Virus record (IMG/VR): IMGVR_UViG_2547132269_000006
Length of the DNA: 4,427 nt
Origin: a virus
Taxonomy: Duplodnaviria > Heunggongvirae > Uroviricota > Caudoviricetes
Reading direction: 5' to 3' (one strand)
The notes under the pieces were generated by a model. That model saw only the letters and a list, made by a program, of their open reading frames with translations, was not told where the DNA came from and made no database searches. Positions 1 to 1,687 of this stretch are shown here, one piece after another; within the stretch, counting starts at the first letter, position 1; the number at the start of each line of letters is the position of its first letter. Both the position numbers and the translations under genes were made by a program.

Positions 1-184
1 TCGGGCTGGCTACTTAACCCCTGACCACTGTCTGGTAACTCGAAGTATTGCCCTGCGTTCTGTGGGGCGGGGTGGGTTTATGGATACAATTCACAAATTA
101 AAATTTAACTGGTCAACATGTTTATTATTAAATTTGTAATTGCGAGCTGTTGCATCAGTCCCAAAATGGGACTACTATACAGTT

Positions 185-487
185 ATGAAGATTATCTCAG
201 TTAAAACACTCAGGGATTTTTGGGCGGAGAATCTTGATGCAGAACAACCGCTAAGGGCATGGGGGGATGAGGCGGCAAAAGCTGACTGGAAAAGCCCAGC
301 AGACATTAAGGCACAATACCGAACGGCCAGTATATTGAAAAACCGGCGCGTGGTATTCAACATAAAAGGTAATCATTACCGTTTAATTGTTGCAATTGCG
401 TATCAGCGAGGATGGGTATTTGTTAAATTCATCGGAAACCACAAGGAATACGATGCTATTGATGCTGATACCATCAAACTGGAGTAA
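185..487 (+). CDS. higB: HigB-family type II toxin (RelE/ParE-fold mRNA interferase), 100 aa
   Basis: ATG at 185 gives MKIISVKTL..., which resembles the N-terminus and the core VFNIKGNHYRLIVA...HKEYD motif of E. coli HigB (YgjN) as I recall it. Stop TAA at 485-487 lies 2 nt before the next ATG, with the toxin first and an HTH antitoxin second, as in HigBA. The TTG at 140 in the ORF track adds 15 residues with no family support. No clear SD precedes 185. Confidence 0.85.
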   Translation: MKIISVKTLRDFWAENLDAEQPLRAWGDEAAKADWKSPADIKAQYRTASILKNRRVVFNIKGNHYRLIVAIAYQRGWVFVKFIGNHKEYDAIDADTIKLE

Positions 488-489
488 GC

Positions 490-849
490 ATGAACATCAA
501 ACCTATTCGTACAGAGCAAGATTATGAAGCCGCGTTGCGTGCTGTTGAACCCATGTTCGACAATGAGCCCGAAATTGACACGCCTGAGGGGGATTTTTTT
601 GAGGTGATGTGTTTGCTAATAGAGGAATATGAAAAAAAACATTATCCCATTGAGCCACCATCCCCAATTGAAGCTATAAGATTTCGCATGGAACAGCAGG
701 GGCTGACTGTGAAAGATTTGGAACCCGCAATTGGGAAAAAAAATCGGGTTTATGAGGTGTTGAATGGTACCAGAAGCCTTACGTTACCAATGATTCGCCG
801 TCTTCATAATCAATTTGGTATCCCCCTGGAAAGCCTGGTTGGATTATAA
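490..849 (+). CDS. higA: HigA-family antitoxin, XRE-type HTH DNA-binding protein, 119 aa
   Basis: GGAG at 481-484 sits 5 nt upstream of ATG 490. The C-terminal LTVKDLEPAIGKKNRVYEVLNGTRSLTLPMIRRLHNQFGIP resembles the HTH region of E. coli HigA (YgjM) from memory. It is tightly coupled to the upstream toxin gene. Confidence 0.85.
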   Translation: MNIKPIRTEQDYEAALRAVEPMFDNEPEIDTPEGDFFEVMCLLIEEYEKKHYPIEPPSPIEAIRFRMEQQGLTVKDLEPAIGKKNRVYEVLNGTRSLTLPMIRRLHNQFGIPLESLVGL

Positions 850-864
850 AATCTGCTAGTCATT

Positions 865-913
865 TGCCTGATGCTCGTTCCAGAAAAGGAATGCATCAGG
901 CAGTTTTGTTTTT
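865..913 (+). terminator. Putative intrinsic terminator for the higBA transcript, placed between convergent genes
   Basis: Perfect 10-bp inverted repeat TGCCTGATGC (865-874) / GCATCAGGCA (893-902) with an 18-nt loop that can pair internally (TTCC/GGAA), followed on the + strand by GTTTTGTTTTT (903-913). The right arm overlaps the last codons and stop (896-898) of the minus-strand repressor gene. No U-tract follows on the minus strand. Confidence 0.5.
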
Positions 914-1288
914 CTGCCGCAGTAACTCTTCAAGTTTCCGTTTATAGAAATCGCGTTTTTGCTCCATATCACGAATGATCTGCTCTGCGTCGCTTTGAGG
1001 TAACTCATCTAAAAGCGATATGATTTTTCGTTGTTGTTCTGTAAGTTGCGGTTGGTTGTCATTACTGGATACAGCCATTTTATCGCCGAGAGTTTCTTCT
1101 TCCATAAAGAACCAATGGACGGGATGTTGTGAGAGCTCTGCTAATTTTTCCAGTTTATCCATTCTTGGCATCACGCCTTTCAACCAACCTTGCACGGATT
1201 GGGGTTTTACACCAAGACGTCTTCCCAGCTCTGACTGGTTTATATTCAATTCCTGCAACACCTGCTGAAGGCGTTTTACAAAGATCAT
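896..1288 (-). CDS. Prophage repressor, short CI/DicA/RacR-type XRE HTH protein without an S24 peptidase domain, 130 aa
   Basis: ATG at 1288 (minus) is preceded by GAGGGG at 6-7 nt spacing; the ORF-track start at 1294 is a GTG two codons upstream. The N-terminal HTH (QSELGRRLGVKPQSVQGW) and an acidic/basic helical C-terminus (LLDELPQSDAEQIIRDMEQ...KRKLEELL) match DicA-like repressor architecture as I recall it. It is divergent from a Cro-like gene across an AT-rich operator region. Confidence 0.8.
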   Translation of the reverse strand: MIFVKRLQQVLQELNINQSELGRRLGVKPQSVQGWLKGVMPRMDKLEKLAELSQHPVHWFFMEEETLGDKMAVSSNDNQPQLTEQQRKIISLLDELPQSDAEQIIRDMEQKRDFYKRKLEELLRQKNKTA

Positions 1289-1426
1289 CACCACCCCTCG
1301 TAAACTAGTTCCGCGATCCTACAGAAAAAATTGATAAGTGGCATTACAAATAGAAGTTGAAATTTAAATTTAAATTTAAATTTAAATTTGTAATTATCGG
1401 TGTCATCGTAAAGTTCGGAGGGAAAC
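1289..1426. promoter_or_regulatory. Divergent promoter/operator region of the lysogeny switch (PRM-like leftward, PR-like rightward)
   Basis: A 138-bp AT-rich intergenic region lies between the divergent repressor and Cro-like genes. It contains inverted octamers ATTACAAA (1343-1350) / TTTGTAAT (1387-1394), the (AAATTT)5 tract, and a candidate rightward extended -10 TGtAATTAT (1389-1397) with a -35-like TTTAAA about 17 bp upstream. The promoter hexamer assignments are inference only. Confidence 0.6.
1360..1389. repeat. Perfect tandem hexamer repeat (AAATTT)x5, self-complementary
   Basis: Read directly: five uninterrupted AAATTT units from 1360 to 1389, bounded by G on both sides. Confidence 0.95.
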
Positions 1427-1687
1427 ATGCAAAAAAGTACTCAAGTGAAAATCCTGTCAATAATGAGCCAATCAGAATTAGGGCGTCGTCTTGGTAAAAC
1501 ACCGCAAACCATAAGTGGGTGGTTTAAAAAACGAGTGCCAGCGGAGGAGGTTATACCAGCATGTGAGGCGCTTGACTGGGGAGTAACTCCGCATGAATTG
1601 CGCCCTGATAAATACCCTAATCCAACCGATGGTTTACCTGTTGAGTATCAGGCTAACGCACAAGCAGCGGCGGGAGTTGATTCATGA
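1427..1687 (+). CDS. ydaS: Cro-like HTH regulator, YdaS family, 86 aa
   Basis: GGAGGG sits 6 nt upstream of ATG 1427. The HTH (SQSELGRRLGKTPQTISGW) is followed by a ...TPHELRPDKYP motif that I associate with YdaS/Cro-like proteins. It is the first gene of the rightward operon, opposite the repressor, and its stop overlaps the next start (ATGA at 1684-1687). The symbol is assigned by family resemblance and synteny with Rac racR-ydaS-ydaT. Confidence 0.75.
   Translation: MQKSTQVKILSIMSQSELGRRLGKTPQTISGWFKKRVPAEEVIPACEALDWGVTPHELRPDKYPNPTDGLPVEYQANAQAAAGVDS

Follow-up and report, generated by a model that had tools for sequence, protein, structure and literature searches.

In phage lambda, the rexAB genes are carried as cargo between cI and the leftward promoter PL, and both CI and Cro bind the operators OL and OR. 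The immunity region of the cryptic prophage CP-933P is ordered PL933P, parE2, paaA2, paaR2, PRM, PR, ydaS, and ydaT (PMC8630535). PL933P carries OR-like operators, and repression of this promoter by both PaaR2 and YdaS has been shown experimentally (Jurenas et al., mBio 2021, PMC8630535). For RacR of the Rac prophage of E. coli K-12, four operators in the intergenic region are described (PMC9638921, PMC11879457). Here, we analyzed a stretch of phage DNA of 4,427 nucleotides, which is referred to as the window and is a complete immunity region of a lambdoid prophage of the Rac/CP-933P type. A preliminary description of this DNA had pointed to an exact 14-bp repeat shared by the region upstream of higB and the operator region of the lysogeny switch, and had offered two readings of it, an OL-type operator and a HigA autoregulation site.

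Organization of the immunity region

The order of elements in the window was PL/OL, higBA, a PaaR2-like repressor gene, a divergent OR, a gene for a YdaS-like Cro analogue, and ydaT for a CII analogue, as follows.

1-78, minus strand: leader of a leftward operon of the ydfA/ydfB/ydfC-DicF-dicB type; left edge of the immunity-specific segment
79-142: PL/OL
185-487, plus strand: higB (Pfam HigB_toxin, 1.4e-32; RefSeq annotation)
490-849, plus strand: higA (Pfam HTH_3, 4.3e-6; RefSeq annotation)
896-1288, minus strand: immunity repressor, PaaR2-like, with an XRE-type HTH and a C-terminal helical domain (Pfam HTH_3, 6.3e-9)
1295-1426: divergent OR
1427-1687, plus strand: ydaS-like cro analogue (Pfam YdaS_toxin, 1.7e-8)
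1677-1694: YdaT-box TTGATTcatgaaAATCAA, equal to TTGATT-N6-AATCAA and spanning the ydaT start codon
1684-2121, plus strand: ydaT, cII analogue (Pfam YdaT_toxin, 1.2e-10)
downstream of ydaT, plus strand: DUF1376/DnaT-type and lambda-P-type replication genes (open reading frames, Pfam)

Open reading frames, Pfam, PaaR homology, and RefSeq annotation together showed a repressor gene divergent from a cro-type gene, which is followed by the cII analogue. The repressor had no S24 peptidase domain, and its gene is preceded by a Shine-Dalgarno sequence. It is a full-length homologue of a PaaR-like repressor, that of the paaR-paaA-parE locus L002 (31% identity over 123 residues, E = 4e-21). A further locus from O157:H7, L042, was considered as CP-933P itself and rejected, since no published primer matched it; it is another PaaR-PaaA-ParE locus and was used as a heteroimmune sibling only. 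TTGATT-N6-AATCAA is the YdaT site given in two publications (PMC9986795, PMC11879457), and such a box over the ydaT start is described for both Rac and CP-933P.

The same arrangement was annotated in 148 of the 5426 complete E. coli genomes, one of them O26:H11 str. 11368, and carriers of this immunity type included O26:H11, O111:H11, and Bos taurus or bovine isolates. In those genomes, a ydfC-dicB-exonuclease operon lay on the opposite strand to the left of the immunity region. Positions 1-78 of the window matched 3046 of the 5426 genomes, with most matches ending at ~78, and a leader of this type was also found upstream of ydfA-type genes in L002 and in a third locus, L003. On the other side, the segment 1575-1700 is conserved across immunity types and matched many hundreds of genomes; the YdaT-box falls in this segment and coincided with the right mosaic boundary. 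The stretch between 78 and ~1575 was confined to the 148 genomes. Because homology to thousands of other prophages stops at 78 and resumes at ~1575, positions 79-1575 behave like a classical immunity-specific segment that would run from PL/OL into cro. The two copies of the 14-mer are located at the two regulatory ends of this segment.

An Rfam search of the window, leader 1-78 included, found no family, and the leader showed no unusual fold (z = +1.0). Within the leftward operon of L003, downstream of the proposed PL, positions 1993-2465 contained a DicF-like stretch scoring 43.3 bits, which is under the Rfam gathering score of 48, together with isrK and C4 antisense RNA matches above threshold beside a Rha-family gene. 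Inside the DUF1376/DnaT replication gene of the window, GTTCAAACAAA-type words were repeated and inverted at 2551-2640; by analogy with the lambda O gene, these words may be origin iterons. As for the repressor, none more than 40% identical was present in the sequenced-phage collection, and a protein-pattern scan of species-representative genomes gave zero matches. Three DNA-pattern matches in species-representative genomes (Rickettsiaceae, Bacteroidota, and Flavobacterium) were ignored, as this was about the number estimated to occur by chance.

The repeated 14-mer and its occurrence by chance

A search of the window located TTAAATTTGTAATT exactly, on the plus strand, at 128-141 and 1382-1395, as the preliminary description had reported. 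The first copy lies 44-57 nt upstream of the higB start, so that its distance of 44 bp from the ATG at 185 was likewise as described. The second copy lies, again as described, at the right edge of the (AAATTT)5 tract, which occupies 1360-1389; it consists of the final 8 nt of this tract followed by GTAATT. The exact identity between the copies is 14 nt, and the bases on either side are not shared. Allowing up to three mismatches, degenerate inverted copies were found at 1342-1355 (TTCTATTTGTAATG) and 89-102 (TTTAATTTGTGAAT), both on the minus strand.

We then asked how often such a repeat arises in shuffled sequences. When the whole window was shuffled with preservation of dinucleotides, an exact repeat of at least 14 nt in either orientation occurred in 8% of the shuffles, and one of at least 13 nt in 29%. 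The window also contains an unrelated perfect inverted repeat of 13 nt that has no evident meaning. A regional null, in which 79-184 was shuffled 5000 times and 1295-1426 was held fixed, yielded a common word of at least 14 nt in three of the 5000 shuffles (P = 0.0006), and the same null confined to the AT-rich cores gave P = 0.0014; A+T content was ~70% in both regions. Thus, the earlier statement that a 14-bp match is unlikely in 4.4 kb was only moderately true of the window as a whole, where a repeat of this length is not rare, but such a word is rare between the two regulatory regions (P ~0.001).

The candidate leftward promoter and its probable operator

The left region contained the following features.

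87-101, minus strand: OL left arm CAATTCACAAATTAA, overlapping the PL -10
88-116, minus strand: candidate PL, with -35 TTGACC (116 to 111), a 17-nt spacer, and -10 (93 to 88)
128-141, plus strand: OL copy of the 14-mer, forming the right arm of the inverted repeat and located upstream of the PL -35
150-178, plus strand: higB promoter, with -35 TTGCAT (150-155) and -10 TACTAT (173-178)
158-172: candidate HigA operator GTCCCAAAATGGGAC, a perfect palindrome in the higB promoter spacer
864-914, plus strand: terminator hairpin and T-run that end higBA (-26.1 kcal/mol, z = -3.45, followed by GUUUUGUUUUU)

PL, PR, and the higB promoter were assigned by eye and by conservation; a simple promoter scanner, at its own thresholds, made no call for any of the three. 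The -35 element of PL (GGTCAA on the plus strand) is conserved, and its -10 element, TGAATT in the window, is TAAATT or TAGATT in every relative. As read from these elements, the candidate promoter would start near 81 and transcribe the leader and the ydfA-type genes leftward. Positions 87-101 are the reverse complement of 128-142 except for one indel and one mismatch. Because 128-142 thus mirrors 87-101, which overlaps the PL -10, the OL sequence reads as a two-arm dyad flanking the PL -35, with the 14-mer as the arm upstream of the promoter.

For comparison, we used the heteroimmune loci L002 and L042. In both, a promoter-like TTGACA...TAGATT lay at the same offset from the leader as the candidate PL, with the repressor operon's terminator before it. 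Furthermore, the OL and OR of these loci had common words of their own, 16 and 17 nt in length, which differ from the 14-mer. The left part of OL (AATCTACAA.TTAAAA) was similar in the heteroimmune phages too, and it may for this reason belong to the core promoter and not determine specificity. A rightward promoter that uses the OL copy of the 14-mer as its -10 was also considered and rejected, because TAATTG has no conserved final T and the sibling arm offers no -10 either.

The probable rightward operator and features private to this copy

The right region contained the following features.

1342-1355, minus strand: OR left arm, containing ATTACAAAT (1343-1351), in the zone of the repressor-gene promoter
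1357-1362, plus strand: TTGAAA, the PR -35 in relatives
1360-1389, plus strand: (AAATTT)5 tract
1382-1395, plus strand: OR copy of the 14-mer, right arm of the OR inverted repeat
1389-1397, plus strand: PR extended -10 TGTAATTAT, overlapped by the OR copy of the 14-mer

The OR dyad is formed by ATTACAAAT (1343-1351) and ATTTGTAAT (1386-1394). At the sequence level, dyad-related repeated sites (1342-1355 and 1382-1395) overlap the rightward promoter, and a second cluster of sites, 87-101 and 128-142, flanks TTGACC at the candidate leftward promoter, on the far side of the repressor gene and the cargo. In relatives with three AAATTT units, PR reads TTGAAA-N17-AATTAT with TG before the -10, and the 14-mer spans the end of the PR spacer and the extended -10. 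The preliminary description had placed the second copy over the PR -10, which agrees with the conserved TGTAATTAT. The OR right arm was kept as ATYTGYAATYAT in homologues whose repressors are 71-100% identical. Centre to centre, the arms were ~28 bp apart at OR in the usual three-unit form versus ~39 bp at OL.

Two changes were private to the window when judged against the relatives that were retrieved and aligned. The AAATTT tract had five units only here and three in the 31 aligned loci and in the metagenome contig L049; the best of the 148 complete-genome matches was 12 bp shorter than the query. Through this expansion, TTGAAA lies 12 bp farther from the PR -10. With five units, the spacing of the OR arms changes from ~28 to ~40 bp, which is near the ~39 bp of OL. 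In addition, C at position 91 was found only in the window, the relatives having T at 91 (and T or C at 90); it turns the PL -10 into TGAATT, with loss of the conserved A at the second position (-11). If they are real and not assembly errors, the five-unit tract and C91 would be expected to weaken both early promoters.

Conservation among loci of the same immunity type

A footprint was made from 32 loci of this immunity type, comprising 15-16 distinct sequences; the window itself was excluded from the diversity figures. The values for each segment were as follows.

128-138, first 11 nt of the OL 14-mer: 2 of 11 columns variable, pairwise diversity 0.024
142-149, OL spacer just downstream: 8 of 8 columns variable, pairwise diversity 0.458
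109-120, PL -35 zone: 7 of 12 columns variable, pairwise diversity 0.222
OR left arm and -35 zone: 0 columns variable, pairwise diversity 0.000 (15 distinct relatives)
1382-1395, OR 14-mer: 4 of 14 columns variable, pairwise diversity 0.082
1396-1415, OR transcribed leader: 12 of 20 columns variable, pairwise diversity 0.156

Across the 15 distinct relatives, only two of the 21 columns of block 88-108 were variable. Most relatives are 95-99% identical. As to the expectation that homologous prophages conserve the 14-mer at both positions, the exact word was present at both sites in only 18 of the 32 loci, its final three bases varying between relatives; it was the 11-nt core TTAAATTTGTA that was kept, at OL in 30 of the 32 loci and at OR in 28. 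We also sought co-variation of the 14-mer between OL and OR across the relatives and saw none; variants at the two sites were independent.

More distant homologues were found in Salmonella and Sodalis, whose repressors show 71-74% identity overall. The HTH (the first ~55-60 residues) was almost identical, with one to six substitutions each, and the divergence lay mostly in the linker. Their OR was built in the same way, with ATTRCAATT as the left arm, ATYTGYAAT as the right arm, and the box TTGMAATTT. The cargo slot beyond the repressor gene, by comparison, was exchanged: in L030-L041 it contained higBA, a 424-aa PLDc_2 protein, PaaA2 with a TM2-domain protein, or nothing. By lineage, three Salmonella lineages carried higBA, PLDc_2, or PaaA2 plus other genes, and Sodalis carried nothing. 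Sodalis, which has no higBA, nevertheless kept the leader, a TAGAGT/TTGACT promoter, and the upstream OL arm TTTAAATTTAAAATTGCAGAT; such an OL without higBA was seen in this one locus type, represented by two short contigs. The siblings have other words, Sodalis keeps the arm, and plasmid higBA cassettes do not have the word, as would be expected if the word travels with the repressor. Against this, an OL was also sought within 3.5 kb in Salmonella L036-L039, which represent two lineages with PLDc_2 or PaaA2 cargo, and was not found there.

The higBA cassette and its candidate operator

Seven non-phage higBA cassettes from plasmids were compared (two from E. coli and one each from Salmonella, Enterobacter, Diaphorobacter, Pantoea, and Vibrio), whose HigB proteins are 55-87% identical. 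Within 400 bp upstream of higB, a match to the 14-mer with up to three mismatches was absent from all seven. What these cassettes all keep are (G/A/T)TCCCA-N3-TGGGA(C/A) palindromes (a motif also written TCCCA-N5-TGGGA). There are usually two copies, separated by 25-40 bp, of which the proximal one falls within the spacer of the promoter. The prophage copy keeps the proximal palindrome only, at 158-172, which is likely the HigA operator as judged from its sequence and position. The 14-mer bears no resemblance to the TCCCA/TGGGA palindrome, and the alignment of plasmid higBA to the window begins at ~157. Thus, the element conserved with higBA in other contexts is TCCCA-N5-TGGGA, and it is not the 14-mer.

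The higB ATG lies 6 nt past the -10 TACTAT and has no Shine-Dalgarno sequence, as is also the case in the plasmids L005, L006, and L051, which suggests that the higB mRNA is leaderless; the homologue in L004/L050 has a 27-nt leader with AAGGA. At the other end of the cassette, the hairpin at 864-914 extends over the 3′ end of the convergent repressor gene, stop codon included, and may serve as a shared or bidirectional terminator.

Discussion

The 14-mer is probably one arm of the left and right repressor operators, OL and OR, and thus a word of the phage rather than of the toxin-antitoxin module. The OL-type reading of the preliminary description draws support from position, dyad, conservation, the Sodalis locus without higBA, and the gene order of CP-933P; PL/OL is positionally equivalent to that of the heteroimmune siblings and the word is more conserved than its flanks. 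In the mechanism that we propose, OL and OR would each be a long-range inverted repeat on ATTTGTAA(T), with the 14-mer as the well-matched right arm and the left arms degenerate. We infer that these arms, at both OR and OL, would be bound by the repressor and also, once it reaches higher levels, by the Cro analogue. Repressor on the OR right arm, at the extended -10 of PR, would shut off ydaS-ydaT and the replication genes. The OR left arm lies in the -35 zone of the promoter of the repressor gene itself, and binding there probably tunes that promoter. At OL, the PL -10 would be covered by the left arm, with the 14-mer, upstream of the -35, serving as a second site for cooperative binding. An oligomeric repressor could bridge the 1.25 kb between OL and OR, as in lambda.

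The same conservation may be viewed from the promoters alone. An UP element is A+T-rich DNA at approximately -40 to -60 that stimulates transcription via the alpha subunit of RNA polymerase. Arm conservation at OR is also explicable by the PR spacer and extended -10, and at OL by an UP-element position, such that the OL copy would be an UP element or curved DNA, the two copies would be identical because AT-rich promoter DNA is similar, and the repressor would bind elsewhere. TGTAATTAT would make a plausible extended -10, and in the three-unit relatives it is separated from TTGAAA by 17 nt; 121-141 falls at approximately -40 to -60 of the proposed PL start and -44 to -64 of the higB start, so that its A+T content and position suit both promoters; and both regions are ~70% A+T. 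However, UP elements need no dyad, and the OL copy mirrors the arm over the PL -10; at this position the heteroimmune siblings carry a palindromic word of their own, specific to their immunity; the null that respects local composition still gives P ~0.001; and TAATTG leaves the OL copy without a usable -10 on the plus strand. We therefore regard an explanation by promoter architecture only, the main rival, as unlikely. That the match arose by chance in AT-rich, low-complexity DNA and has persisted through the close kinship of the relatives is very unlikely, even though a repeat of this length appears in 8% of whole-window shuffles, a meaningless 13-nt inverted repeat is present as well, the simple AAATTT tract supplies eight of the 14 bases of the OR copy, and most relatives are nearly identical. 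Against it stand the low probability between the two regulatory regions (P = 0.0006-0.0014), the divergence of the spacer 142-149 in every column next to a core that has not diverged, and the Salmonella and Sodalis homologues, which keep the arms with repressors only 71-74% identical.

The other reading of the preliminary description, that the 14-mer is an autoregulation site of HigA or the HigBA complex that also occurs in the lysogeny switch and couples the toxin-antitoxin module to the lysis-lysogeny decision, is hardly tenable. It would fit the position of the 14-mer 44 bp upstream of higB and ~30 bp upstream of the proximal palindrome, which is roughly the place of the second palindrome in plasmids. 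We reject it because the seven non-phage cassettes have no 14-mer within 400 bp upstream of higB, even at three mismatches, and all conserve the TCCCA-N5-TGGGA palindrome instead, and because plasmid homology begins only at ~157; Sodalis, moreover, keeps the arm without higBA. The position does raise another proposal. As the 14-mer sits where plasmid promoters have their distal palindrome, the phage repressor at the OL right arm (128-141) might replace the missing distal HigA operator and so couple higBA to the lysogeny switch, which we consider quite improbable. If it were true, transcription of higBA in a lysogen would be governed by whether repressor is bound or by an OL-OR loop enclosing higBA, the toxin-antitoxin balance would shift on induction or loss of immunity, and a canonical, separately transcribed toxin-antitoxin cassette would be wired in cis to the lysogeny switch.

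With the repressor-operator reading preferred, the analysis assigns a regulatory grammar, consisting of arms, a candidate PL, PR, and a separate HigA operator, to an uncharacterised immunity type. It also extends the CP-933P layout, with its slot for defence or addiction cargo between repressor and OL, to prophages that carry higBA or cargo of the PLD or PaaA2 type, and defined oligonucleotide targets for binding and reporter assays result from it.

Compared with known systems, the window is closest in gene order to CP-933P, which shares with it PL, toxin-antitoxin cargo, a non-cleavable CI-like repressor, divergent PRM/PR, YdaS, and YdaT. Both have operator-like repeats in the intergenic region and at a promoter beyond the toxin-antitoxin cargo, which in the window is a candidate promoter, and their repressors belong to the same family, as seen from the 31% identity to a PaaR-like protein. 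They differ in the operator word, whose consensus is GTTTAGTAA in CP-933P (PMC8630535) versus ATTTGTAAT in the window. They further differ in that paaA2-parE2 is co-transcribed with the repressor gene, whereas higBA is convergent with it and has its own promoter and terminator, and in that the CP-933P repressor gene is leaderless, whereas that of the window has a Shine-Dalgarno sequence. The Rac region of E. coli K-12 has the same switch proteins (RacR, YdaS, and YdaT) and a YdaT-box over the ydaT start, as in the window, although the available portions of its descriptions (PMC9638921, PMC11879457) give no counterpart of OL. The palindrome at 158-172, inside the promoter spacer, is typical of HigA operators in higBA promoters; the 14-mer differs from it and does not travel with higBA.

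With lambda, the window shares two operator clusters that flank the repressor and its cargo, with near-identical words over PL and PR ~1-2 kb apart, a distance compatible with looping, and its cargo slot resembles the position of rexAB. Each lambda operator has three 17-bp sites, in mirror orientation, whereas each region of the window looks like a two-arm dyad, the best-matched arm points the same way in OL and OR, and TTGMAA at the PR -35 may be a third box; unlike the lambda repressor, that of the window has no S24 autocleavage domain. The layout is thus most likely of the textbook lambda type in an uncharacterised immunity type, rather than a new coupling of a toxin-antitoxin module to a phage or a new mechanism.
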